Shown: piece after piece, positions 7,083 through 51,930 of the stretch
Layout of the letters: every line of letters begins with the position of its first letter
Position numbering within the stretch: the stretch's first letter is position 1
Notes under the pieces: model-generated
Databases searched by the model: none
The model's input: the letters and a program-made list of their open reading frames with translations, nothing else
Told to the model about the DNA's origin: nothing
DNA from: Gallionellales bacterium GWA2_55_18
Lineage (GTDB): Bacteria; Pseudomonadota; Gammaproteobacteria; Burkholderiales; Gallionellaceae
Length of the DNA: 56,024 nt
Reading direction: 5' to 3'
Assembly: GCA_001801055.1 (NCBI GenBank)
Contig: MGWP01000012.1
Location: 1-56,024, forward strand
Translations under genes and position numbers: made by a program

Positions 7083-8485
7083 ATACGCCGCCAGGTTGTG
7101 CCGTTCGCACTATCTTCCAGCACGATACCGGTCTCCAGCAACTCCTTGCGGATACGGTCGGCTTCGGCGAAGTTCTTCGCCTTTTTCGCGGCGATGCGCG
7201 CCTCGATCTGTGCATTGATTGCGGCATCGTCAAGCCCGCCTTTGGCTGAGCCGCCTTGCAAAAATGCCTGCGGGTCGCGTTGCAGCAAACCAAGCATTTC
7301 CGCCAAAGTCTTGAGCTGCGCAGCCGCTTCAGCGGATTGAGTACGGTTCACTTCATTGGCCAAGTCGAACAGTACCGCCATCGCTTCCGGCGTGTTGAAG
7401 TCATCGTCCATCGCAGCTTTGAAGCTCTGGGCGTGGGGTGCATTCCAATCAACTGCAACCCCCCCAGCCCCCCTTGTCAGGGGGGGGCCGGGAGGGGTTA
7501 TGCTTTTCAGCGCCGTATAAAGTCGCGTCAGCGCGCCTTTCGCATCGTCCAGATGCATGTCGGAATAATTCAGCGGGCTGCGGTAATGCGCGCGCAGGAT
7601 GAAGAAGCGCACCACTTCGGCGTCGTATTTCTTCAGCACCTCGCGGATGGTGAAGAAATTGCCGAGCGACTTGGACATTTTTTCCTCGTCCACGCGCACG
7701 AAGCCGTTGTGCATCCAGTAATTCACAAATTTGCACTGGTGCGCGCCCTCACTTTGCGCGATCTCGTTCTCGTGATGCGGAAACTGCAAGTCCGCGCCGC
7801 CGCCGTGGATATCGAAATGCCTGCCCAGGATTTCCGTGCCCATCGCCGAGCATTCGATATGCCAGCCGGGTCGCCCTTTGCCCCATTTGGAATCCCACTT
7901 CACTTCGTCTGCTTCGCTTTCTTTCGCACTCTTCCACAACACGAAGTCGAGCGGATCGTTCTTGCCCTCCACAACATCCACGCGCTCGCCTGCGCGCAAG
8001 TCTTCCAGCGATTTGCCGGACAGTTTTCCATAGCCGTCAAACTTGCGTACCGCATAATTCACGTCGCCATCTGCTGCCCGATAGGCCAGCCCGTTGCTTT
8101 CCAGCCTGGCGATCATGTCCAGCATTTCCGGCACGAATTGCGTGGCGCGCGGCTCATGATCCGGGCGCTGCACGCCCAGCGCATCGGCATCCATATGCAT
8201 CGCGTCGATAAAGCGTTGCGTCAGCGCATGGATGGATTCGTTGTTCTCCGCCGCGCGCCTGATGATCTTGTCGTCGATGTCGGTGATGTTGCGCACATAG
8301 TTGACGTCGTAGCCGGAAGCTTTCAGCCAGCGGTACACCATGTCGAACACCACCATCACGCGCGCATGGCCGAGGTGGCAATAGTCGTACACCGTCATAC
8401 CGCACACGTACATGCCGACCGTGCCCGGCACAATCGGCGTGAACTCTTGTTTGTCACGGGTGAGCGTGTTATAGATTTTTAGCAT
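7079..8485 (-). CDS. cysS: Cysteinyl-tRNA synthetase with an in-frame repeat insert
   Basis: [50 protein letters not shown]. Confidence 0.98.
7457..7500. repeat. CCCC/GGGG palindromic repeat inside cysS
   Basis: AACCCCCCCAGCCCCCCTTGTCAGGGGGGGGCCGGGAGGGGTTA, same family as 18125-18257; encodes [14 protein letters not shown]. Confidence 0.8.
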
Positions 8486-17922: not shown

Positions 17923-19141
17923 AACCGCAAGCCTCGATGTTGAGTGGATTACCCGACGCATCGTGCACGATACAGCCGCGCCCCGCAACAACTTTCCCGA
18001 TACAGGCCAGCGGCAGATCAAGCCTTGCTGCGATATTCAACAGTTCAGCATGGCGCGCAGCCGGTGCGGTGAAGCACAATTCGTAATCGTCGCCACCGCA
18101 CAGGATGCATTGTTTAAGCAACTCAACCCCTCCCGGCCTCCCCTTGTCATAACCAGCGACTTGGTCATCGTCTTTTGATGGCCTAGTCGAATGGCTAGTT
18201 GTTTTATCAGGGGAGGAGTTAGGCTTCCCCCCTGACAAGGGGGGATTGAGGGGGGTTAGGCGCTCACGCAACACAGCCGAAACCGGCAACGCATCGAACT
18301 CAATCTCCGCCCCCACCTGCGAGGCTTCGAGAATATGTCCAAGATCGGCGAGCAGGCCGTCGGAAATATCAATCGCGCTGTTGGCGATGCCGCGCAATAC
18401 CAGCCCCAGCGCCACGCGCGGCTGCGGTTGATGCAATGCGGCAGTGCAAGCGGCGAACTCTGTTGCGTTCAGCAGGATACGGCCTTGCAGATGCGCGAGC
18501 GCCAGCGCCGCATCGCCCAGACAACCAGACACCCAGATTTCATCGCCAACTTGCGCGCCGCTACGGCGCAACGCCTGTTGCGCGGGTACTTCGCCGAAGA
18601 TGGTCACGCATAGATTAAGCGGCCCGCGCGTGGTGTCGCCACCGACCAATTCCACGCCATGCTGCTGTGCCAAGGCAAAAAATCCCGCACTGAATTGCGC
18701 CAGCCATGCCTCATCCACAGTAAACATAAGTTCGCGTAGCGATTCGTTTGTCCCCTCTCCCGCCGGGGTAACCAGCGACTTGGCTGCGGTCGTTTGCAGC
18801 CTAGTCGAATGGCTAGTTGTTTCATCCAGAGGGTTAGGGTGGGGGCATTCATGGCTTGTTTCTTTGCCTTGAACGAAGGGCAACGCGATGGCCAGCGTTG
18901 CCCAGCGCGGCGCGGCGCCCATTGCCGCCATATCGGACAGGTTTACCGCGAGGGTCTTGTGCCCCAGCATGAACGGGTCGGCATTGGGAAGAAAATGCGT
19001 GCCGCATACCAGCATGTCGCTGGACACCGCCAGCACATTGCCCGCACTCGCTTGCAGCAGCGCGGCATCGTCGCCCACGCCAAGCAGTGCACCGGGAGTG
19101 GCGCGGGTGAAATAGCGACGGATCAGGTCAAATTCGGACAT
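17906..19141 (-). CDS. thiL: Thiamine-monophosphate kinase carrying two in-frame composite repeat inserts
   Basis: [52 protein letters not shown]; 411 aa versus roughly 320 for typical ThiL. Confidence 0.95.
18125..18257. repeat. Palindromic doublet with a nested 60-bp element (18149-18208)
   Basis: CCCTCCCGGCCTCCCCTTGTC[60 bp]AGGGGAGG...CCCCCCTGACAAGGGGGGATTGAGGGGGGTT. Confidence 0.85.
18730..18846. repeat. CCCCTCTCCC/GAGGG-type repeat with a nested ~60-bp element (18768-18827)
   Basis: CCCCTCTCCCGCCGGG[TAACCAGCGACTTGG...CTAGTCGAATGGCTAGTTGTT]AGAGGGTTAGGGTGGGGG. Confidence 0.82.
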
Positions 19142-19146
19142 GGTTT

Positions 19147-19226
19147 GTAGGATGGGTTGAGCGCAGCGATACCCATCGTTTTACGTTAACAAATTGATGG
19201 GTATCGCTGCGCTCAACCCATCCTAC
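19147..19226. repeat. GTAG-type REP doublet
   Basis: GTAGGATGGGTTGAGCGCAGCGATACCCATC and its perfect inverted copy, between nusB and thiL. Confidence 0.9.
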
Positions 19227-19265
19227 GGCTTTAATCTGTTAAATCTGCGGATAAAGTTTTGAAAG

Positions 19266-31118: not shown

Positions 31119-34100
31119 TCATCCCCCTTTGCGGCACACCAGTGCCTGGCCCATCGGTCGGTCGATTTGGATGATCTCCTCGACGGGCCTCCGTATCACG
31201 AAATTGGCGACGGTGATGGTCTGGATCATCGAGACGATGGCGTCGGTGACGGTGGTGGTCGTGGTGGAGGTACCGCTGCTGGTCGTCGAAACCGTTGTTT
31301 GCGTCTCGGTCGTGCCGGATGGGGCCGTCGTGGTGGTCATCGTGGTGGTCATCGTGGTCGGCGCCAGCACGGTGGTCTGGATCATCGAGGCGATGGCGTC
31401 GGTGACGGTGGTGGTCGTGGTGGAAGTCGTGACCGGCGGAGGCGGCACTGCGGTGATGGTGAGCGTACCGTCGATGTAGGCTAGGCTATAGTTGTTCGCG
31501 GTCAAGCCAGTGGGCGTAATGGCGTAGCTGCCGGCGTTGACGGCGCCCTGTGCCGTGCCGCCGTAGCCGAGCGTACCGGAAAGCACGGAACTGTTCTCGC
31601 CATTGACGAAGCCGACGTAGCTGACGCCATTGCCGCCGCTGTAGGCGAAGCCGTCGTAGGTCTTGCCGGCGGCGTTGGCGGTGACGGTCAGTGGTGCCGG
31701 GGTAATGGTGGCGACCTGCGTGCCGCCGGTGAAGGTGTAGTTGCTGGCTAGGCCGTTGGTGCCATTGCCCAGCGCGAGGGTGTTCAGGGTAACCGGCTTG
31801 TTGGCGCCGACGTTGGGGTTGGCGAGGATGCCGACGCCGCTGAGCGTGAGGTCTTGACCGCTCACCAGACCGCTCAGCGTGAAGATGTTTGCATTTACAT
31901 TGGTCGTGCCGTCGTAGGCGCGCGTGCCGTTCAAGCTGATTGCGCTCAGGGCGACGGGGTTGATGGTCAGGTTTCCGCCAGTGAGGTCATAGCCTTGCTG
32001 GTTGGAATAATAGCCATTATAAAAACCCGCATTGGTTCCCGTGGCGGCTACACCAAAGAAATTACCAATGTCGGGCATGCTACTTGCGCCGCTTTGCGCC
32101 ATACCGTTGTACGTCACGGCCACATCCGGCGCGTCGGCAAGCGTCAGGGGTGTCAAGAAGCTGGTGAGCAAGGGCGCGCTATGGCCTTCATAGATGCGCC
32201 ACACGGCACCGCTGCCGCCGGTGTTGGCGATGTCCCATCCCGCAGCAGTGAAGTTCGACATCGCCGTCATCTGGGCGGTGGATAGCCCTGTCTCAGGTCC
32301 GCTGCTAGTTGCACGGCCGGATGCTTGAACATCCCAGTAGTTGTTGTTGCTGGCGAACCCTTCTTCCCAACCAATCAACCCGCCGCCATTGCTGCCGCCA
32401 GCAGCAACGGCGTTGGTGCTGTAGGAAGTGTCAACTATGTTCCAGTTGGCACCCACCAGCCCACCAAAATACGAAGTCCCACTCACCGTGCCGCCGCTGG
32501 AATAGGTATCCGTAATGGTGCCGCTATTTTCGCCTGCCAAGCCGCCGACATACCGATTACTACCCACTGTGACGCCGCTGGAATAACTGTTGCTGATACT
32601 GCCATTGTTATACCCCACCAAGCCGCCGACATCGCTGTTTCCGCCATTAACCGTGCCGCCGCTGACATAAGAGTTGCTGATATTGCCGTTGTTCGTACCC
32701 GCTAAAGCACCAACAAAATCGCTCCCAATAACATTGCTAGTCAACAAGCCCAGGTTGCTCACCGTGCCGCCCGTCGCTATGTTGCCGAACAAGCCTACAT
32801 AACCAGCCGCCGGACGATTGATAGCGAGATTGCTGATGGTGTGGTTCAGCCCGTTAAACGTGCCGGTGAATTGAGTGGTGACATCCCCGATCGGCGCAAA
32901 GCCGCTGGTAATGCCCGTAGCCACCGTCAGCGTAGCACCGCCGACCCCGGCGACACTCGCTGTACCCCATATGTCATTGGGATTGGCAAGGGCTGCGGCG
33001 AGGTCAAGGTCGTTCGCCAAGGTATAATTCGCGGCCAAATTCATACCGATCAACTGCAACTGGTGCGCGTTGCTGATCGTGGTGCTGTATTCCATGCGCA
33101 GGATGGGACGGGTGCTGCCTTCGACCATGTACCATTTATTGGTAAAGTCCCATTGCCCACCAGCTTGCGGATAGGTTGCTTGCGTCATCATTGCGGTGGT
33201 GGTTAAACCTGTGCCGACTGCGGAAGTTGCCCAGCCTGATGTTATGGTATCCCAGAAATTGTTGCTGACCGTGCCGCCTGCATTCATCCCCACCAGCCCG
33301 CCGACATTGCTGGTACCGGTCACACCGCCCGTGCTGTAGGAGTTGGTGATTGTGCCGGTATTGCCACCCACCAGCCCGCCGACATTTGACGCGCTGCCGC
33401 TCACTGTGCCGGTGCTGTAGGAGCTGTAGATTGCGCCGCCATTATTCCCTAACAGCCCGCCGACATTGTTGGCACCGCTCACTGTGCCGGTGCTGTAGGA
33501 ATAGTAGATTGCGGCGCTGCCGGAGGCGTTCCCTCCCACCAGCCCGCCGACATAGTTGCCGCTGCCGCTGCTGACTGTGCCTGTGCTGTAGGAACTGACA
33601 ACTGTGGCTGTGTTATAGCCCACCAGCCCGCCGACATAGCCGGTGGTTCCGATGCCGGTCACAGTGCCGGTGCTGTAGGAATTGGTGATTGTGCCAGTAC
33701 CGTTAAGCCCCGCCAGCCCGCCGACCTGATTGCGGCCGGTTATACTGCCGCCAACCAGCCCGACATTGCGGATAGTTCCATTCGTATATCCGAAAAGACC
33801 GACATTATCTGTGGCAGGCCTGTTTATAGTCAGCCATGTAAGGGTATGCCCGAGCCCGTCAAAGTTGCCGGTGAATGTGCCCACAGGCAGAAAGCCCGCG
33901 TAAGTGGTGCCGCTGACAAAATTCCAAGTTGACGTTGCCGTCGCGTCGATATTGCTGCCCAACGCATAGTTCGCGGCCAGTCCGCCATTCATCCCTTGCA
34001 AATCCATAGCCGTGACGCTACCCGCCGCACCCAGGCTGGTGATAACGGTGTAGTTTTTGGCGGGGCTGCCCGCCGAACCCAGCTTGGTGCTGAAATTATT

Positions 34101-35624
34101 TCCGGCGGGGAGGTTGACGGCGGCGTTGACGTTGTAAGTGTTGTTACCGCCGCCCCATGCCGAAGCTTGACCATATTCCAGCGCGAGGCTTGCGCTGCCG
34201 GAGCCGTTCAGGTTGGCGTTGATGTTGATGTTGTTTTGCGCGTTGAGGGTGAGCTTGTTGGCCGACCAGGTCACCACATCATTCACGTTGACATCGCCCA
34301 ATGTTCCGGTGCCACCGCTGGTACTCAAGATGCTGAAATTTCCACCTGACAGTGCCGTGCTGACGGCAGTCCCGGTCATGTCACCGCCAGTGGCAGCGAT
34401 GGTGAAGTCGAACGGGTCAATCAGCCAGATGCCATTTATGCCGTTGTCTGCAAGGGTGGTAACGCGCGCGGTATCCGCCACTTGCACATGCGCCGCACTG
34501 GTTTCGATGAAGCCGCCGTTGCCGTTCAAGGATGAGGCATCCAGCGTGCCACCAACCTTGACCATGCCACCCGCCATGTCGCCCATGAGCTTGATTTGCC
34601 CGCCGCCGTTGGCGCCGGAGGCGACGATGCTGCCGGTGTTTTCGACGATGGCGCCTTCGAGCAGGATTTCGCCGCCTTTCATGGTCAGCCCGATGGCGCG
34701 GATGATGCCGCTGTTGTTCACGACCCGATCCAGCGTTTCCCTCGCCTGCCCGGCGGTGAGCGTGATCTGGGCGCCATCAATGCTGCCGCTGTTCTCGATG
34801 CTCGCTTTGAGCGCGGCATCCTCGACACGGGCGCGGATGAGGCCGTCGGCGGTAAGATCAATAGCCACGGTGTTGCCCGCCGCCAGCGTGACGGTGGTGG
34901 CGATGATTTTCCCGGCGTTGTGTGTGGTGTTGCCGATGAGCGCTACACTGCCCAGCGCATTGATGGTTCCCTCGTTGCGGATGCTGCCTGAGCCGGGGTT
35001 GGTGAGCCGGTAATTGCCCGCCATGAAATCGCTGTTGCCGAGGCTCATCGTCGTAGCGAGAATGCCGCCGACATTGACCTGTGCCCCGCGTGCGAACAGC
35101 ATCCCGTTGGGGTTGCTGAAGAAGACCTGGCCGTTGGCGTTGAGTTTGCCGTATATCTCGGATGCGCTGTTGCCGCCGATGCGATTCAAAGCCACCGCAT
35201 TCGCATTGGGTTGGTTGAAATTGACCGTAGCGGAAGCGCCGATGTTGAAGCTTTTCCAGTCGATTGCCGCACGCTGGCTGGATTGTTGGACGATGAGGAT
35301 ATTGGCGACCTGGCTGATGGTCGCGCTGCCTGCGGTGACGCTCCCGCCGGTGGGCAGCGCGCCCACGTCGAGGGCGTGGGCGGGTGCGCCGATGATGGCG
35401 AGCGCGAGAGTAAGTGGGAGAAGTGCGTAGGATTGTGTAAACGATAATCGCTTCGACAGGCTCAGGACAGGCATGGTGGGCATAGCCCACCCTACGGTTG
35501 CTTCATCCGGTTTGGGGCTGGCTCCGACCGTGCTGCTGCGCTTGCCGCGCCCCTTGGCGATTTCGGCGACAGCCGCCCAGGTGTTGGCAATCTCGCTCCA
35601 GACAAGACGATAGATGTGGTTCAT
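31119..35624 (-). CDS. TpsA filamentous haemagglutinin-like exoprotein (ESPR, TPS domain, GLUG repeats, YDG/MBG, Thr-rich tail)
   Basis: MNHIYRLVW ESPR, IDWKSFNIG, NPNG, repeated YSTGTVSG..VGGLVG, RAYDG/KTYDG. Confidence 0.92.
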   Translation of the reverse strand: MNHIYRLVWSEIANTWAAVAEIAKGRGKRSSTVGASPKPDEATVGWAMPTMPVLSLSKRLSFTQSYALLPLTLALAIIGAPAHALDVGALPTGGSVTAGSATISQVANILIVQQSSQRAAIDWKSFNIGASATVNFNQPNANAVALNRIGGNSASEIYGKLNANGQVFFSNPNGMLFARGAQVNVGGILATTMSLGNSDFMAGNYRLTNPGSGSIRNEGTINALGSVALIGNTTHNAGKIIATTVTLAAGNTVAIDLTADGLIRARVEDAALKASIENSGSIDGAQITLTAGQARETLDRVVNNSGIIRAIGLTMKGGEILLEGAIVENTGSIVASGANGGGQIKLMGDMAGGMVKVGGTLDASSLNGNGGFIETSAAHVQVADTARVTTLADNGINGIWLIDPFDFTIAATGGDMTGTAVSTALSGGNFSILSTSGGTGTLGDVNVNDVVTWSANKLTLNAQNNININANLNGSGSASLALEYGQASAWGGGNNTYNVNAAVNLPAGNNFSTKLGSAGSPAKNYTVITSLGAAGSVTAMDLQGMNGGLAANYALGSNIDATATSTWNFVSGTTYAGFLPVGTFTGNFDGLGHTLTWLTINRPATDNVGLFGYTNGTIRNVGLVGGSITGRNQVGGLAGLNGTGTITNSYSTGTVTGIGTTGYVGGLVGYNTATVVSSYSTGTVSSGSGNYVGGLVGGNASGSAAIYYSYSTGTVSGANNVGGLLGNNGGAIYSSYSTGTVSGSASNVGGLVGGNTGTITNSYSTGGVTGTSNVGGLVGMNAGGTVSNNFWDTITSGWATSAVGTGLTTTAMMTQATYPQAGGQWDFTNKWYMVEGSTRPILRMEYSTTISNAHQLQLIGMNLAANYTLANDLDLAAALANPNDIWGTASVAGVGGATLTVATGITSGFAPIGDVTTQFTGTFNGLNHTISNLAINRPAAGYVGLFGNIATGGTVSNLGLLTSNVIGSDFVGALAGTNNGNISNSYVSGGTVNGGNSDVGGLVGYNNGSISNSYSSGVTVGSNRYVGGLAGENSGTITDTYSSGGTVSGTSYFGGLVGANWNIVDTSYSTNAVAAGGSNGGGLIGWEEGFASNNNYWDVQASGRATSSGPETGLSTAQMTAMSNFTAAGWDIANTGGSGAVWRIYEGHSAPLLTSFLTPLTLADAPDVAVTYNGMAQSGASSMPDIGNFFGVAATGTNAGFYNGYYSNQQGYDLTGGNLTINPVALSAISLNGTRAYDGTTNVNANIFTLSGLVSGQDLTLSGVGILANPNVGANKPVTLNTLALGNGTNGLASNYTFTGGTQVATITPAPLTVTANAAGKTYDGFAYSGGNGVSYVGFVNGENSSVLSGTLGYGGTAQGAVNAGSYAITPTGLTANNYSLAYIDGTLTITAVPPPPVTTSTTTTTVTDAIASMIQTTVLAPTTMTTTMTTTTAPSGTTETQTTVSTTSSGTSTTTTTVTDAIVSMIQTITVANFVIRRPVEEIIQIDRPMGQALVCRKGG
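35449..35495. repeat. Two different REP-like units inside the tpsA signal region
   Basis: CTTCGACAGGCTCAGGAC (family of 44785-44846) and GGTGGGCATAGCCCACCCTAC (GTAG REP on the minus strand). Confidence 0.72.
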
Positions 35625-35659
35625 GGGCTCACCTCTGCAATGATCTCATTCAATTTCTC

Positions 35660-37402
35660 TCACCACGTATAGGCCATGCTGAACCATAGCCTCGGTCTGT
35701 CGTTGTCCGTCGGGTTGGGTGCCTCTTTGCCCGCCCAAGCCAGAATCGCCGAAGCAGTCAAGCCACCGAAAACATTCCAGTCAATATTGACGCCAGAATC
35801 ACTGAGCCGCTTATGGTTGGAGGCGGCGGTGGACAACGGTGTATGGGCCAGGCGTAACCTGGCGTAGTCGGCGAACACGCCCACGGCCAGATCGTTGTAT
35901 ATTTGCCAGCGCAAGTTGAGTTTGGCTTGGCCTCCCGAATCACCGCTGGCTTCACCGTTGGCGTAGCCGGGCAGGGTGAGCGGACCGCCCAGGCTGAGTT
36001 TTTCGGAAGAATCGAGGTTTTTGTCGGCGAGTTGGTAATTGAGTTGCATTTGCAGGGAAACTTTCGGATGGATGGCCTGCTGGCGCATCAGCATCAGGTT
36101 GGCCTTGTTGAAGCCGCCTGCGGTTCCCGGCCCGGCAGGAAAGGCGTCAAGCGCCGCGCTGGTTGGCCCAAGTGATAACACGCCGTGGCGCCAGGCCAAA
36201 TCAATGCGGCTGGAGCCGCCACCCCAAACTTCATCCAGCCAGTCGCCGCTCAGGGTGGCGGTCAAACCACGGCTGCGCTTGCCCAAGTCCAAATCAACGC
36301 TAGCGATGCGATCATTGAGTTGGATATGATCCGCAACGATCTGGAAATTGAGATTCGATGCCCGGCTGCGCAGGAAGGGATAGGCGGCACCCATGCGTAT
36401 CGATTTGGCCTGTCCGCTGGCGTTCAGGCTGGCGAAATTACCGCCCAAAGAGTATTCGGCCAGCGAGGCGGCAGCAGTGAGGCGCCAACCGTCCCCGCCT
36501 ACAGGCAATTCGTAACGCAAGTTGTAGCTGGAGAGGTTGCCGGTCTCTGTGGCCATCACGTTAGCGCTCAGTTGGTCGCCAAGATTCCAGGGGCTGTTGC
36601 CGATCAGGCTGATGCCTACGCGTTTTTCTCCGGTGGAAGGGCTGCCGTGGTTGCTGACATCCAGCCGCCCGATCACCGGAGCTCCCATCGTCTGGGCCAG
36701 GACGATGTCGGTGCTGCCGGGCGTCTCTCCGGCCTGAAGATCGAGCACGGCACGTTCACCGGCCAGTTCATTGATGAGCAGTATCTGGCGCTCGACATTT
36801 GCCATGGTAACCGCTTGGCCTTTGGGTATGCGGTCGAGGTACTTGAATACCACATCGGGATTGACCCGGCTTTCCCCTTCGAGACGGGCTTCACCCAGCT
36901 TGCCTTCGGTGATCAATATCTCGATGTCGCCGTCCCTGATTTTTTGTGGCGGCAGGTATGCCTGAGCCAGGAAGTAGCCCGCTTCCTTGTAGCGCGCTTC
37001 GACGGCTTCTACCGCCTCCATGAGTTCGCCGAAATTAAGCGGGCGTTGTGCCCATTGGGCGACAGCGGCCTGCAGGGTTTCTTGGCTTAACGCGCTATTG
37101 CCGGAGAAGGTAAAGTGGGTGACGTTGACCCTGGCGTCATATGGGGATGCCGCCGCCGGAGGTGGCCGGCTGGGCGCCGGAGCCTGAATCGGCGGTAATG
37201 TGCCGGGAACGGAAAGCTTGGGCTGCCCCAGTTGCTGTGACTCTTGCAATACGCGACCGGCATCGGGAGTAACTTCGGCAAGAGCGGGTATGGCTGTTAA
37301 GAAAAGCGCGCACCATGCTACTCGGGCCAAAGACGGTAGCAGCGATGCACAGGCATGCTTTGAGTGCGTTTGTTTATTTCTCACTAACATTTCGGAGTTC
37401 AT
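35660..37402 (-). CDS. TpsB (ShlB/FhaC/HecB) two-partner secretion transporter
   Basis: POTRA YKEAGYFLAQAYLPPQKI, NLDSSEKLSLGG loop, beta-barrel ending in aromatic W. Confidence 0.92.
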   Translation of the reverse strand: MNSEMLVRNKQTHSKHACASLLPSLARVAWCALFLTAIPALAEVTPDAGRVLQESQQLGQPKLSVPGTLPPIQAPAPSRPPPAAASPYDARVNVTHFTFSGNSALSQETLQAAVAQWAQRPLNFGELMEAVEAVEARYKEAGYFLAQAYLPPQKIRDGDIEILITEGKLGEARLEGESRVNPDVVFKYLDRIPKGQAVTMANVERQILLINELAGERAVLDLQAGETPGSTDIVLAQTMGAPVIGRLDVSNHGSPSTGEKRVGISLIGNSPWNLGDQLSANVMATETGNLSSYNLRYELPVGGDGWRLTAAASLAEYSLGGNFASLNASGQAKSIRMGAAYPFLRSRASNLNFQIVADHIQLNDRIASVDLDLGKRSRGLTATLSGDWLDEVWGGGSSRIDLAWRHGVLSLGPTSAALDAFPAGPGTAGGFNKANLMLMRQQAIHPKVSLQMQLNYQLADKNLDSSEKLSLGGPLTLPGYANGEASGDSGGQAKLNLRWQIYNDLAVGVFADYARLRLAHTPLSTAASNHKRLSDSGVNIDWNVFGGLTASAILAWAGKEAPNPTDNDRPRLWFSMAYTW

Positions 37403-46059: not shown

Positions 46060-46195
46060 TAAGGAAACACTGAATAAGTCCGTTCGCCCTGAGCCTGTCG
46101 AAGGGCGAACTTCGCAACTTATTGATCGTGCGCCATCTTCCGTTCATGGTTCGACAGGCTCACCACGAGCGGAATACTTATTCAGTGTTTCCTTA
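46060..46195. mobile_element. MITE enclosing a REP doublet
   Basis: Perfect 20-bp TIR TAAGGAAACACTGAATAAGT; inner CTGAGCCTGTCGAAG...TTCGACAGGCTCAC. Confidence 0.85.
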
Positions 46196-46252
46196 ACGTA
46201 ATTTAACCGGCTCCGCGCTTTTGCGGAGTCCCGCTTGAGCGTAGGGTTGGAC
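46191..46252 (-). other. attC site (last of the array)
   Basis: Minus strand GTCCAAC-CCTACGCTCAAGCGGGACTCCGCAAAAGCGCGGAGCCGGTTAAATTAC-GTTAAGG. Confidence 0.8.
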
Positions 46253-46358
46253 GAAGCCGCTATCGCGGAGAAATGCCCCCCATCAATTTGAGTCAAAGCC
46301 ATAATTCTCCTCAGCCCCGCAAGGGATTTTTTTGCACTTTAACATGAGGAGAATGTCT

Positions 46359-47266
46359 ATGACACACGAATTTCCACAACCATTTGCGAGGCATTACGAG
46401 AGCCTGCTCAAGCGCTTGAAGTTGCGCGGCATGCAGCCCAAGACGGTCGAAGCGTACAGCCACGGCGTGCGCCGGGCAGGCGCGCATTTCGACTACCGCA
46501 TCGATGACTTGAACAAAGATCAACTGACCGATTATTTCGCGGAGATCCTGGATCATCTGTCGTGGAGCACGCTCAAGCACGATTTATATGGGCTGAAGTT
46601 TTACTACGCCTATGTGCTGGGCAAACCCTGGCCCGGAGCCGAGTTGACCAAAGCGCCCAAGGTGTCGCGTCTGCCGGATATCGTGACGGTGGCGCAGATG
46701 CAGCAGATCGTGGATGCGACGCGCGTGCTCAGCTACCGGGTGTTCTTTTTTGCCCTGTACAGCATGGGCTTGCGTCTGGGGGAAGGGTTGCAGTTGCGGG
46801 TGGGCGATCTCGATGCGGGGCGGATGCGGGTGCATGTCCGCGATGCCAAGGGCAACCGGGACCGGCTGGTGCCACTGCCTGCCCACACGCTGGAAGTGTT
46901 GCGCGAGTTCTGGAAAGTGCATCGCAACCCGGTGCTGTTATTTCCCAACCGCAAAAAAGGACTCGGGGGCGCAGCCAATGCGACGACGCACATGGATCGT
47001 GGCGGCGTGCAACAGGCGTTGCGTCAGGTCACCGAGCATATCGGTTTAAAAAAAGAATTACGCCGCATTGCCTTCGCCACAGCTATGCCACCCACCTGAT
47101 CGAAGCGGGCGTCGGCCTGCTCGAAGTGCAAAAAATTCTCGGTCACCACTCGGTGATCACTACCAGCCGCTACACCCATCTCACCGAACATCGCAAAGAG
47201 TCCGCCGAAGCGTACATCAACACTCTGATGGGCCAGATCAAGGTCGGCTGGAACAGAGTCGTATGA
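46359..47266 (+). CDS. Tyrosine recombinase requiring a -1 frameshift at 47048-47054
   Basis: Frame 0 has GLRLGE and [10 protein letters not shown]; frame -1 has [14 protein letters not shown] and TTSRYTH; junction TTA AAA AAA GAA. Confidence 0.85.
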
Positions 47267-48339
47267 TGCGCCTCGCCGATATTGTGTCCCAATACGCGCC
47301 CGACCTGCTCGAACGGCACGGGCACGAACTGCTGCCCGGCCAACTGAAAGCACTCAACGCGTTCGGGCAGTGCCGCAGCGCGGGCGCGCCCAGAATGCTG
47401 CTGTCCTGCGACGGCTGCGAGCAGGAATGCTGGCTACCGCATTCCTGCGGCAACCGGCACTGCCCGCAGTGTCAGGCTCACGAATCGCAGCGCTGGATTG
47501 ACAAGCAGTTGCAGCGGCTGGTGCCGGGCGAGTATTTCTTGATCACGTTTACCTTGCCCGCACAATTCCGTGCGTTGGCCTGGTGGCACCAGCGCGTGCT
47601 GTACGAGCTCATCATTCGCAACGCCTGGGCCACGGCCAACACCTTCAGCCAGAACGACAAGAAGCTGCGCGGGACGGCGGGCGCGGTGGCGGTGTTGCAC
47701 ACGCACAACCGCCGTCTGGATTTCCACCCGCACGTACATCTGGTGATGCCGTCGGTCGCGTTCGATGCCCGGCAGCGGCTGTGGCGCAACAAAGACAGCG
47801 GTTTTCTGTTCGACCACAAAGCGCTGGCCAAAGTATTCCGCGCCAAGATGCTGGACGGCATCAAACGGGCGGGGTTAAAACTTCCCGAGCAGTATCCCGA
47901 AGAATGGGTGGTGCATTGCGAGGCGGTGGGTTCCGGCCAGAAGGCCTTGGTGTATCTGGGACGGTATTTGTATCGCGGGGTGTTGCCCGAGAAAAACATC
48001 GTGTCAAACCGTGATGGCAACGTCACGTTCCGCTACCAGAACAGCGAAACCCGCAAGATGGAAACCCGTACTTTGAGCGGCGTGGCGTTCCTGCGCAAAA
48101 TCCTGCTGCATATCCTCCCGAAGGGTTTCAGGCGCGCGCGCAATTTTGGTTTTCTGCACCCCAACAGCAAGCTGGTCAAACTGGTGCAACTAATCAAACA
48201 GGTGCTTGTTCCACCCAGACCGCGCCCGGTGGTGAGCTGCACCTGCTGCGGCAAGCCAATGCGGATTGTGCGCACGCGGGTGAGGTGCGCGGGGGATGCA
48301 TCGCGCAGCCTGGTGCCGATCAGGGAGACCGCCATGTAA
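47263..48339 (+). CDS. IS91-family rolling-circle (HUH/Y2) transposase
   Basis: Zn-binding [21 protein letters not shown]...HPHVH, YLGRY, HILPKGF. Confidence 0.93.
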
Positions 48340-48559
48340 ACCGGCGCACCCCGCAAACCTGCTGCCACCAGCAGGTGCGGACAAACTCACTCTGAAATCG
48401 GCGGAAGTCGCATAAAACAGCCACTTGGGGCACGGGAAACGGCGATGTCGTCTTGCCCCAAGTGGCATTTTAAAATATCCGGGGGAAGCTCAGCCCTTGA
48501 ATGCGAGGCCGGATTTTTGGAGATATTTGCATAGCGTTTGTGAGGCCCCCGCCGAGCTC

Positions 48560-48622
48560 GTCCAACAAACGGTTCAGATCGCGGCTCGCTTCGCGATCAC
48601 GATCTAACCTTAATCGTTAGGC
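48560..48622 (+). other. attC-like site, opposite polarity to the array
   Basis: GTCCAAC...GGTT(C)AGATCG / CGATCTAACC...GTTAGGC, with the extrahelical-base L-box signature. Confidence 0.78.
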
Positions 48623-48875
48623 TTTCGGTCGAAGCTATCAATGGAAAGGCAGAAGGGTTGCGTATGGACTCGACGGCTAAGTCAATGTCCAGCGATGGCC
48701 AAAAAAGGTGATTTTCGGCAGGCCACTCGACCTCGCATAACTGCTCGATTGTTGCACCCCGAAACCACGGGAAATCAGTAAACGGTAAAAATAACTCTTC
48801 GTCGGCAAGTAACAGCCAGAAGCCATGTTTTGAAACATGGGTGATTTCAGCTTGGGAAGTGAGTGTGCCAGGCAT
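48597..48875 (-). CDS. DUF2442-type putative antitoxin (cassette gene)
   Basis: LPFTDFPWF, HLFWPSLDIDLAVESI; overlaps the upstream DUF4160 gene. Confidence 0.8.
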   Translation of the reverse strand: MPGTLTSQAEITHVSKHGFWLLLADEELFLPFTDFPWFRGATIEQLCEVEWPAENHLFWPSLDIDLAVESIRNPSAFPLIASTESLTIKVRS

Positions 48876-49086
48876 GGGTTATCTCCTCCATGTGAACAAC
48901 GACAAGACGTTGAGCTTCCTTGATTTGTTTGGGCGACAGCCCGGTGCTTGTTGCCAGTGCCAGTCTTGGCGACAGCCAAAATTTGGCTTCCCCATCTGGA
49001 TGGCTGACATGCACATGCATCTTCGGCTCTTCCCGCGAAAAGAAAAAGAACCGAAAGCTACCCTCACGAAAAATTGTCGGCGACAT
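48847..49086 (-). CDS. DUF4160-type putative toxin (cassette gene)
   Basis: MSPTIFREGSFRFFFFSREEPKMHVHV, EAKFWL, AWHTHF. Confidence 0.82.
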   Translation of the reverse strand: MSPTIFREGSFRFFFFSREEPKMHVHVSHPDGEAKFWLSPRLALATSTGLSPKQIKEAQRLVVVHMEEITHAWHTHFPS

Positions 49087-49107
49087 GACCGAATTATAGC
49101 CCCTAAC

Positions 49108-50177
49108 GAATGAAAGGGACTTCCCCGTCCCGAGGCAGCGGAGAAGTTTCCGCAAACGGCAACAAGTGCCATGATGGAATTTTGGTCATTTCATCAACAC
49201 CACGAAAGGGGAAGCCCATGAACATTATCACCGTAGGAATCGATCTCACCAAGAACGTGTTTGCCGTGCACGGCGTAGATGATAACGGCAAGCCCGCACT
49301 GGTCAAGCCGAAAGTTTCACGCGCGGATTCGCTGCCGCTGATCGCGCAACTGCCGCCATGCACCATCGGCATGGAGGCGTGTTCCGGTGCACACCACTGG
49401 GCGCGGCAGTTCAGGCAATACGGCCACACCGTCAAACTGATGGCGCCGAAGTTCGTCGCGCCCTACCGCATGACCGGCAAGCGCGGCAAGAACGATGCGG
49501 CGGATGCCGCCGCGATCTGCGAGGCCGTCACTCGCCCGGCCATGCTTTTCGTCCCGGTCAAGGAAGAACACCAGCAGATCATCCTGTGCCTGCACCGCAC
49601 ACGCCAAGGATTCGTCGAAGAGCGCACCGCCAGCTACAACCGCCTGCGCGGATTGATCGCCGAATTCGGCATCGTCCTGCCGCAGAAAGTGACTGCCTGC
49701 GCCGCGAGATCGGCGCGCACCTGGAAGACCTGCCGGGTTACGCCAAGGCGCGGCTCGGGCGGATTACCAAGGCCGGAGACAACTACCTGCGCAGCCTGCT
49801 CGTCATGGGCGCGCGGGCGGTGCTCAACAGCATCGGCGACAAGCAAGATAGATTCAGCCGCTGGGCGCGCGCACTGCAAGAGCGGCGCGGCTACTGGCGC
49901 GCGGTGATCGCCATCGCGGCGAAGAATGCGCGGCTGGCGTGGGCGGTGTTGAGGTATGGCGAAGATTTCAAACTGGAGCTGGGCAAAGAGTAAAAACCAA
50001 AACCGTCTGCCAAAGAGAAGATACCTGAAAGGAATAACGTGATAGTGACCTCATTCAGCGAATTCCATCAGGGATAGAGGCGAAGGCCTCACCAAAAATC
50101 CGGATGTGTGGCTGCAATCTTTACCTGCCCTCAAAATCATCGAATGAAAGTGCTTGGCAAAAGTGGGCGTCCATGTA
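49108..50177 (+). mobile_element. IS110 family, IS1111-attC type element, internally deleted
   Basis: Splits attC CCCTAAC(G)|TGGAGCTAAGGGG; sub-terminal IRs; downstream non-coding region. Confidence 0.85.
49218..49993 (+). pseudogene. IS110 DEDD transposase with frameshift and internal deletion
   Basis: GIDLTK, GMEAC, KNDAADA; frame change near 49697; C-terminal RLGRITKAGDNYLRSLL lacks the preceding SG motif region. Confidence 0.85.
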
Positions 50178-50232
50178 TGGAGCTAAGGGGCTGCGCGCTT
50201 TTGTGCAGTCCCGCTTGAGCGTAGGGTTAGAG
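50178..50232 (-). other. attC site (R' part displaced to 49101-49108)
   Basis: Minus strand CTCTAAC-CCTACGCTCAAGCGGGACTGCACAAAAGCGCGCAGCCCCTTAGCTCCA|CGTTAGGG. Confidence 0.85.
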
Positions 50233-50452
50233 GCAACGCTTCGAGGCGCTCGGCAAGCCATACCTTAATAATGGACTGCCGGGTTACGCCAAGCTTTCTC
50301 GCTTCACGATCTAACGATTCGATCATCCACGTAGGGAAATCAACATTAACGCGCTTTTGCTTTTGCAGCACGCGCTTCGATTTGGATAAGTCCAGTGAAC
50401 CGGTGATGTCAATACCCTTGTCAAACTGTTGGTCAAAAATTTTAGCTTTCAT
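50183..50452 (-). CDS. BrnA/CopG-like RHH antitoxin; ORF reads through the attC
   Basis: RVNVDFPTWMIESLDREARKLGVTRQSIIKVWLAERL. Confidence 0.85.
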   Translation of the reverse strand: MKAKIFDQQFDKGIDITGSLDLSKSKRVLQKQKRVNVDFPTWMIESLDREARKLGVTRQSIIKVWLAERLEALPLTLRSSGTAQKRAAP

Positions 50453-50705
50453 ATAAGGCAACCTCCTCAGGCCGTGAACGACGAACAGAAATTAGTCGGA
50501 CACTTTCATTTCTATAAGTGATTACGGCTGACCAGTGCTTCCCGTTAATCAGACCTATCAGCAAGTACCGAGGTTCATCTTCTGTTTTCGCGGGAATTTC
50601 CAATAATCTTGGGTCATCCCACAAAGCCTGTGCATCAATAAAATTGATGCCGTGCTTCAGAAGATTAGCTTGGCTTTTCTGCTCGTTAAATTCAAAAGTA
50701 ATCAA
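50442..50705 (-). CDS. BrnT family toxin (start uncertain)
   Basis: FEFNEQKSQANLLKHGINF, VRLISVRRS. Confidence 0.88.
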   Translation of the reverse strand: MITFEFNEQKSQANLLKHGINFIDAQALWDDPRLLEIPAKTEDEPRYLLIGLINGKHWSAVITYRNESVRLISVRRSRPEEVALYES

Positions 50706-50755
50706 AGTATAGAAAATATACCATTTTTGGTGAGAGTGCAAGTGCCGGAGGTTGC

Positions 50756-50815
50756 CTCTAACGTAGAATTAACCGGCTCCGCGCTTTTGCGGCCGGGTTG
50801 AATGTCGGGTTGGGC
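50756..50815 (-). other. attC site (uninterrupted)
   Basis: Minus strand GCCCAAC-CCGACATTCAACCCGGCCGCAAAAGCGCGGAGCCGGTTAATTCTAC-GTTAGAG. Confidence 0.88.
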
Positions 50816-50821
50816 ATAGGA

Positions 50822-51097
50822 TTACATCGACCTAGAAAATTGCTGCTCATTTGCAAACTGGCGGGAGAAGAATGTCGTGGAGCAGTCACAGTGTTCCAAA
50901 TTTTTGGGGCAATAATGTTCGAAGAGCGCGACATCTTCAAAGTGTGCCACCTTAATGGTAAAGAAATTTGCTCCGGCATTCATCGCTAAAGGGATTGCTT
51001 TCTGCTCGCCGTAGGCGGATAGCATAAAAAGCGGCCCCCACGCGTTTTGTGGTTTCACACTTGCGGTTACAGAAAATTTAGGTGTTGAATCTGACAC
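50822..51097 (-). CDS. Hypothetical cassette ORF
   Basis: Open frame from a GTG right after the core site to a stop just before the attC; no recognisable motif. Confidence 0.35.
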   Translation of the reverse strand: MSDSTPKFSVTASVKPQNAWGPLFMLSAYGEQKAIPLAMNAGANFFTIKVAHFEDVALFEHYCPKNLEHCDCSTTFFSRQFANEQQFSRSM

Positions 51098-51101
51098 AAC
51101 G

Positions 51102-51875
51102 TAATGGAATGGACGCCCACTTCCTAATACGGCATCGAAGTGCCAAAGTAGTGGTGGCTTTACTACCACTAACCATAGAAAGGGGCATCCAAAAATGAAG
51201 ATTACGACAATTGGCATCGATCTGGCAAAAAATGTTTTTCAGATACACGGCGTGGATGAACGCGGCAAGGTGGCTGCGCGCAAGCAGTTGAAGCGCGCGG
51301 AGATGTCGAAATATTTCGCCAAACTGGAGCCGTGCTTGATCGGCATGGAGGCTTGCGGCAGCGCGCATCACTGGGCGAGGAAACTGGAAGGGTACGGGCA
51401 CACGGTCAAACTGATGGCGCCCCAGTTTGTAAAACCCTATGTCAAAACGAACAAGAACGACATGGCCGATGCGGAAGCGATCTGCGAAGCGGTGTGCAGG
51501 CCGAACATGCGGTTTGTCGCAAAGAAGACGGTCGAGCAGCAAGCGATTATTTCGGTGCACCGGGCGCGCCAGGGATTCGTGAAAGCCCGCACGGCGCAGG
51601 GCAACCAGATACGGGGTTTGCTCTCAGAGTTCGGGATCGTGATACCACAGGGTATTGCCTCGATCACGAAGCAGGTGCCGGAGATTCTGGAGGACGGAGA
51701 GAACGGATTGCCTGGCGCGATGCGCAACCTGATAGAACGGCTGACGGAGACCGGTTGTAGTTTAGCAGTCCTTCACCTTCTCGCACGATGCAAGCAGCGC
51801 GATTTGAAACGGAACGGAGAATGGCAATGAGATAGAAATTTCAAAACCGCTTGCTAAATTGGGGAAGCCCTTGTA
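51102..51875 (+). mobile_element. IS110 family, IS1111-attC type element, truncated
   Basis: Splits attC GACACAACG|GTAAAGTGAGGGG; sub-terminal IRs 7 bp and 3 bp from the ends. Confidence 0.85.
51195..51830 (+). pseudogene. IS110 transposase, N-terminal half only
   Basis: GIDLAKNVFQIHG, GMEACGSAHHWAR, KNDMADAEAI; similarity is lost after about 51750. Confidence 0.85.
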
Positions 51876-51930
51876 GTAAAGTGAGGGGCTGCGCGCTTTT
51901 GCGCAGTCCCGCTCGACTGCCGGGTTGGGC
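51876..51930 (-). other. attC site (R' part displaced to 51094-51101)
   Basis: Minus strand GCCCAAC-CCGGCAGTCGAGCGGGACTGCGCAAAAGCGCGCAGCCCCTCACTTTAC. Confidence 0.85.

Follow-up and report, generated by a model that had tools for sequence, protein, structure and literature searches.

A 60-nucleotide gene-less hairpin element nested within host repeats of thiL and dispersed among Gallionellaceae

The window, by which we mean the whole 56,024-nucleotide stretch of contig MGWP01000012.1 of Gallionellales bacterium GWA2_55_18 that was analysed, contains a thiL gene carrying two copies of a 60-nt, gene-less element, each inside a host repeat (Table 1). Comparison of ThiL with PDB entry 3mcq (E 2e-105) places both inserts between aligned blocks; the protein has 411 aa here versus 313–319 aa in relatives whose gene is naked, and a single-sequence AlphaFold model of it has a pLDDT of 36. 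Both copies lie within one open thiL frame and each reads TTSHSTR on the coding strand, as the initial annotation had stated. Three repeats within 46191–51926 of the window we take to be attC-like.

Table 1. Features of the thiL region and of the remainder of the window.
Feature	Position in window	Strand	Remarks
Empty host-1-family copy inside cysS frame	7456..7501		Bounds approximate
thiL, thiamine-monophosphate kinase, 411 aa	17906..19141	-	AIRS and AIRS_C domains; best solved match 3mcq
Host repeat 1	18125..18257		Inverted C-tract/G-tract arm pair, 73 nt minus element, in frame
Element copy 1, A tail	18150..18209	+	48-nt hairpin (18150–18197) and 12-nt tail ending CA
Host repeat 2	18717..18877		About 96 nt minus element, in frame; BoxC/TMECO-type core at 18753–18845
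Element copy 2, A tail	18769..18828	+	47-nt core followed by a 13-nt tail (subfamily)
Pair of GTAG-type REPs upstream of thiL	19147..19228		Empty here
Two-partner secretion pair	31119-37402		1501-aa GLUG/YDG/MBG-repeat protein and ShlB-type transporter
Integrase fragment, IS91-type Y2 transposase, two truncated IS110 transposases	46191-51926

Comparison of empty with filled host copies fixes the ends of the element, which starts with TAAC and ends with CA: the base preceding TAAC belongs to the host, and the final A to the element. Empty host copies read TTCGT|GG, and filled copies begin with T there. Both copies had been recognised in the initial annotation, one base too far to the left (18149–18208 and 18768–18827), and the blocks that it described as shared by them, as well as both inner stems, are present in the sequence. 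The element has no terminal inverted repeats and makes no target duplication. Copy 1 lies at an A|G junction, likewise without duplication, and its removal restores, as had been claimed, a motif that is seen empty in the cysS repeat at 7470–7483 (chance expectation 0.03). Copy 2 lies at a G|G junction and belongs to a subfamily that in this genome is confined to BoxC-type hosts. The two hosts were said to be hairpins of different repeat families; the families are indeed distinct, but both are BoxC-like repeats of G and C tracts, and copy 2 sits in a G-rich stem, not in a loop. The empty site of host 2 fits the BoxC/TMECO pattern with one mismatch, hence not strictly, an assignment by sequence pattern of which triplex formation is no part; host 1 does not match that pattern. 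According to PMC4666352, the pattern consists of a C-tract, a 3–6-nt loop and two G-tracts 3 nt apart. It is that of host 2 and not of the element, and according to the same text the BoxC/PIT/TMECO triplex motif is always intergenic in Escherichia coli K-12 MG1655, whereas here it is also found in frame within genes.

Orthologous thiL alleles supply the stages of this nesting, from the naked gene through the host repeat only to host plus element. In 30 loci read, from the 56 genomes with a match, 14 alleles are naked, 15 have inserts at these two positions, and one is truncated. Host 1 is empty in L143, where it adds 22 aa, and belongs to the same family as the cysS repeat; host 2 is empty in L140, L142 and L149, reading GGGG|GAGGG, and adds 32 aa in L140 and L149. 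At site 1, another repeat is lodged in the loop of the element in L140, and L148 has a 54-nt variant inside a different host. Contigs from public sequencing runs include other strains in which hosts are empty or alleles naked. The repeat in the loop of the element at site 1 of L140, which is also seen in L035, is about 27 nt long and elsewhere serves as a host of the element, so that nesting runs both ways. Both thiL sites are hot spots, with at least five unrelated repeat types inserted in frame across relatives (L140–L168).

Comparison of four further loci with relatives gave a resident host precisely filled by the element (contig C35 of this genome; L544), a composite of host and element inserted whole (C16), a locus whose relatives have neither host nor element (C17), and a rearranged locus (C48). 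The fill at C35 and the composite at C16 indicate that true insertion and hitchhiking both occur. As the resident base at position -1 was kept at thiL site 2, and the resident loop was kept at C35, conversion from a filled donor is argued against.

An iterated profile search identified 90 matches to the element in this genome (1.69 Mb, 72% complete), and a covariance model, the kind of search that the initial annotation had proposed, identified 85. Together with the empty and filled alleles these bear out its suggestion of a non-autonomous mobile element. Exact-pattern copies are present in 53 of 60 relatives of the genus, the reversed control giving 0 or 1; the genome richest in them, G051 (99% complete), has 65. 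An estimated 3300 stretches were matched in the genome collection, and the 80 matches listed come mostly from Gallionellaceae. Beyond the family, the covariance model found the element in 6 of 146 genomes of the order, 1 of 149 of the class and 0 of 149 of the phylum. One viral contig carries a match; the plasmid and phage collections held none, and Rfam gave no match over the element. We found no description of it in the literature searched, a body that subscription papers and ISfinder lay outside.

Copies of 60, 57, 54 and 51 nt occur, and 263 of 295 A-tailed copies have one of these lengths; inside long ORFs, 10 of 11 copies have 60 nt (p 0.04). Lone halves in two complete genomes were considered as possible ends of a larger element and rejected, all five being broken copies that had decayed, been truncated or been interrupted by a different repeat. 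Of about 60 matches to cores with other tails, 30 loci were read, and these proved to be point mutants or recombinants. Behind some copies (L012, L017, and C35:10671–10830 of this genome) 12-nt tails are stacked without a hairpin, and are likely the remnants of collapsed nested arrays. In several genomes another short repeat, with inverted ends, splits the element at a TA beside the T-T mismatch described below, and the TA is apparently duplicated (L539, L541, L464, and C29:14899 of this genome).

The hairpin occupies positions 1–48 of the element, with its foot at the very first base, and is thus larger than had been claimed. A T-T mismatch is fixed in it, and the main family has an A-C mismatch as well; the stem includes a small internal loop and ends in an apical loop rich in T. 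The 12-nt tail comes after the hairpin. Folding of the + strand as DNA gave z-scores against shuffles of -4.9 for copy 1 and -4.3 for copy 2. Across 152 distinct cores, the T-T mismatch is kept in 147 and the A-C mismatch in 150, and the four pairs of highest mutual information are all stem pairs; in this set the search pattern had fixed some outer columns and left the inner stem free. G-T pairs outnumber A-C pairs in the same cores by 98 to 15, which indicates that one strand, the top, folds. The covariation that the initial annotation saw between its two copies recurs among 28 diverse copies, in which 13 of 18 pairs are altered on both sides; their covariation score is 0.379 versus 0.157 when shuffled and at most 0.122 in slid controls, a test that leans toward the structure since the structure had been drawn from such sequences. 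Independent support for the hairpin comes from variant families, in which the basal stem is made up of different letters while the tail is kept. These data support the initial proposal that the structure is under selection. By crude ORF calls, its orientation shows no bias with respect to host transcription (19 vs 15 between co-directional genes, 7 vs 4 inside ORFs), which suggests that the structure acts at the level of DNA.

Two forms of the element share this hairpin and differ in their tails and in the base that follows. After the 12-nt A tail, which ends in CA, the next base is a purine in 291 of 295 distinct flank pairs (213 junctions A|G, 35 T|G, 28 A|A, 14 G|G and one T|A). The other four are A|T, a junction produced where copies stand in tandem. 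In the B form, 56 nt long in all, the tail has 8 nt and ends in GC, and the next base is a pyrimidine in 48 of 48 cases, or in 48 of 49 if one hybrid is counted. In both counts composites and orthologues appear repeatedly, so the flank pairs are not independent of one another. The B form was found in 26 of 120 genomes of the family, located in the loops of REPs and of the A form; in L151 and L152 it fills the REP upstream of thiL at 19169|19170. Target constraint is limited to the -1 and +1 positions, and 184 targets showed no covariation between tail and target bases.

The element was initially said to target the hairpins of other repeats. Repeats are indeed preferred: the empty sites of 62 of the 74 canonical copies recur elsewhere in the genome, versus 56 of 500 AG sites chosen at random and 109 of 500 chosen from non-coding DNA, and once targets are collapsed into classes, 19 of 30 are repeats versus 22% of the non-coding AG controls (Fisher p 3e-6). 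Unique DNA makes up the other 11 of 30 classes, and 35 of the 74 copies fall into two classes. A preference for hairpins was not borne out for the A form, whose empty sites are not enriched in hairpin strength (9 of 30 classes vs 85 of 500 and 123 of 500 controls; p 0.08 and 0.52) and which has no preference for loops (89 of 295, 30%, vs 163 of 600, 27%), and the host family with the most members in this genome is a non-folding one. The B form does prefer loops (26 of 48, 54%, vs 179 of 600, 30%; p 0.001). Hosts of BoxC type, called by the pattern of PMC4666352, hold 16 of 16 copies in the same orientation, at three positions that are all in G-tracts, and at two loci a resident BoxC copy has received the same subfamily at an identical base. 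Self-nesting occurs too, at two fixed AG sites of the element. Element copy number correlates with BoxC count (rho 0.48, among kin that are not independent); G051 has 65 copies and 2 strict BoxC, and G065 has 25 BoxC and no copies.

The initial annotation had envisaged a transposase gene flanked by the same ends, and the search for one was negative. The element forms an end at none of 80 Y1 loci; 30 IS110 loci have no ends in common with it, three 19-bit matches in such loci being inside the coding region and apparently due to chance; and of 25 Y2 loci one holds a copy, outside the common stretch, and none has matching ends. This speaks against an IS91 or other rolling-circle derivative, and Y2 is absent from 29 of 47 copy-bearing genomes. 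No protein family recurs among the neighbours of copies in this genome and in 80 loci. No transposase was found in 135 of 164 neighbouring ORFs (the other 29, all long, lay outside the scan) or in 106 further ORFs from metagenomes and out-of-family loci, and none of the 241 neighbouring ORFs is a reverse transcriptase. Y1 genes are present in 49 of 60 genomes of the genus and correlate weakly with copy number, at rho 0.30, again among kin that are not independent; the copy-richest genome, G051, has no Y1 match, and 6 of 47 genomes with at least five copies are without Y1. Two copy-rich genomes, 99–100% complete, gave no IS110 match. Unlike IS608 and ISDra2, the element is not biased toward one replication strand in two complete genomes (30 of 62 and 23 of 45 copies), in a test that assumes the origin at dnaA, has noisy skew windows and may be blurred by hitchhiking. 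The sole Y1 match of this genome is an ordinary RAYT flanked by GTAG REPs (C55:46357–46683; L011). At L239:420–1085 (- strand) a RAYT gene has a B form in the loop of its 3' REP, and its reading frame enters the B form. The right ends of IS200-type elements in relatives (L173–L187) are a hairpin with a short T-rich tail, loosely like the A tail, to which the covariance model gave no score. In contig C48 (L333:1581–1910, - strand) BoxC-type repeats stand on both sides of a DUF559 gene, and the element fills one of these repeats. On inspection the guide rules of IS608 and TnpA-REP do not fit, and attC, the hammerhead and group II intron domain V were rejected as well, their consensus being at odds with the ends and the invariant bases.

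In architecture the closest known element is the terminal-only PATE of Haloquadratum, which is 52 bp with a single palindrome (PMC3119063). The likeness extends to a similar size, one palindrome, a conserved terminal oligonucleotide, strain-specific insertions and the lack of terminal inverted repeats, duplication and genes. The element, which is too short for a transposase, shares the absence of inverted repeats and duplication with PATE and the IS200/IS605 group. PATE palindromes are reported there to match known IS605-type elements, with targets of 4–6 nt; here, unlike in PATE, no parent was found (no IS end matched in the 80 Y1 loci, a set that TnpB-only elements are outside), the target rule is 1–2 nt with no 4–6-nt target beside one end, the hairpin begins at the first base, and there is no lagging-strand-template bias. 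SMR-A of Haloquadratum (PMC3119063) is also gene-less and without duplication, enters other mobile repeats and has an unexplained mobilisation. It is about 110 bp with terminal inverted repeats and inserts in PATE/IS605 palindromes, whereas the present element has 60 nt, no inverted repeats and many unrelated hosts, including non-folding ones, and survives in frame.

The element is also like REP/REPIN-RAYT systems (PMC3333891, PMC8266576 and PMC3116915) in its strand-specific imperfect hairpin, conserved mismatches, high copy number and dinucleotide-level cut rule, with C|T the commonest target on one strand. Unlike them it is single rather than paired, does not flank RAYT and is often inside genes; GTAG is absent from the foot of the hairpin, the folded strand starting at base 1 and the other strand having CAAC or CTAC. 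With the REP-targeting insertion sequences and MITEPpu9 it shares being non-autonomous, landing in repeats and having AG at the junction, but those (PMC1525189 and PMC12288879) have a single long target consensus, a core at each end and an identified recombinase. The palindromic elements of Rickettsia likewise lie in frame in housekeeping genes with a recurring peptide, and are about 150 bp, as reviewed in PMC10969869, versus 60 nt and usually nested in another repeat here. A classical MITE is excluded by the absence of terminal inverted repeats and target-site duplication. PATE, REP, classical MITE, IS110 MITE and SMR-A each have defining features that the element lacks.

What is observed, then, is an element with fixed ends, a junction rule, covariation and no duplication, which filled resident hosts and spread in composites. 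We suggest, at about even odds, that it is a non-autonomous PATE- or SMR-like element that was moved by an HUH-type enzyme and then multiplied with its host repeats. The strand starting with TAAC would fold and be recognised via its two conserved mismatches, T-T and A-C; an enzyme of HUH type (Y1-like), encoded elsewhere, would cut at the foot of the hairpin and after the tail, moving the element as single-stranded DNA, and would join it into a transiently single-stranded or non-B site by a one- or two-base rule. The tail may help to set that rule, N|purine, mostly A|G, for A and N|pyrimidine for B. Once inside a mobile repeat, the element would be multiplied by the machinery of that repeat, and lengths of 60, 57, 54 and 51 nt would permit in-frame survival in proteins. 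Favouring an HUH-type enzyme are the lack of duplication, the strand-specific mismatched hairpin, the short cut rule and the likeness to terminal-only PATE; TnpA-REP and IS608 have strand-specific hairpins with functional mismatches and dinucleotide-level cleavage (PMC3333891 and PMC8266576), and E. coli TnpA-REP cuts C|T (PMC3333891). Here the commonest target is C|T on the bottom strand only, and the wobble pairs mark the top strand as folded; that C|T is read only opposite the folded strand is a tension that counts against an HUH enzyme. So do the failure to find one, the lack of Y1 in G051, its lack in 6 of 47 genomes with at least five copies, and the absence of replication-strand bias, of a GTAG guide, of a 4–5-nt target and of tail–target covariation among 184 targets.

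A somewhat unlikely reading is a minimal modular transposon, in which the constant hairpin would be a handle and the exchangeable 8- or 12-nt tail would switch the target, the A form entering the purine side of G-rich repeats and the B form the loops of REPs and of the element itself, by means of an enzyme outside Y1, Y2 and IS110; if true, this would be a new scarless single-strand insertion system. To a like degree we doubt that the element has no enzyme of its own and is spliced into breaks made by those that service the repeats it lives in (RAYT in the case of REPs, DUF559 in that of BoxC, and small GIY-YIG nucleases), target and tail following whichever host system is exploited. That subfamilies track host families at fixed positions within the host, that a B form sits in a RAYT's own REP, that a DUF559 gene adjoins a filled BoxC and one GIY-YIG gene a filled host, and that copy number follows BoxC count (rho 0.48, in kin that are not independent) are all consistent with this. 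Yet G051 and G065 break that correspondence, with 65 copies for 2 strict BoxC and none for 25, and the same ends and A|G rule hold across unrelated hosts, unique DNA (11 of 30 classes) and the element itself, which makes a single enzyme the simpler explanation. Doubtful to a greater extent is the proposal that the dinucleotide alone is needed and that the link to repeats stems from survival and hitchhiking, repeats being harmless landing places that multiply. The 35 of 74 copies in two target classes, the composite inserted whole at C16, the 60-nt length of 10 of 11 in-gene copies (p 0.04) and the indifference of the A form to hairpins and loops would all follow from it; but collapsed classes are still repeats in 19 of 30 cases versus 22% of non-coding AG sites, BoxC orientation is fixed, resident BoxC were filled at one base by one subfamily at two loci, and the element repeatedly enters the same two AG sites of itself.

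An RNA route, in which the folded strand is transcribed, reverse-transcribed and inserted, would fit the wobble asymmetry, which suits an RNA fold, and the absent replication-strand bias. We consider it very unlikely given the lack of orientation bias to host transcription, of an Rfam match and of a reverse transcriptase in the 241 neighbouring ORFs, and given exact 5' ends without duplication. About as unlikely is a MITE of an IS110/IS1111 recombinase, like MITEPpu9, with an AG/CT core: the commonest target, AG, is the core of ISPpu9 and IS621, which target REPs (PMC12288879 and PMC11208160), and two IS110 fragments lie within the window, but the left (A|T) and right (A|G) junctions do not both have the core, targets include T|G and G|G, the 30 or more unrelated target classes give no single long consensus, 0 of 30 IS110 loci have the ends of the element, and the two copy-rich genomes that are 99–100% complete have no detected IS110.

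This element bears on the question of how short bacterial repeats that lack terminal inverted repeats come to spread. Its exact ends, junction rule, hundreds of covarying copies and natural empty and filled alleles make it testable with oligonucleotides, and one hairpin with two tails and opposite target rules is a natural experiment in target choice. If its enzyme is new, a 60-nt scarless donor could serve as a tool. In thiL itself, the nested repeats record the stepwise growth of a protein, by 94 residues through four nested insertions with the frame kept.
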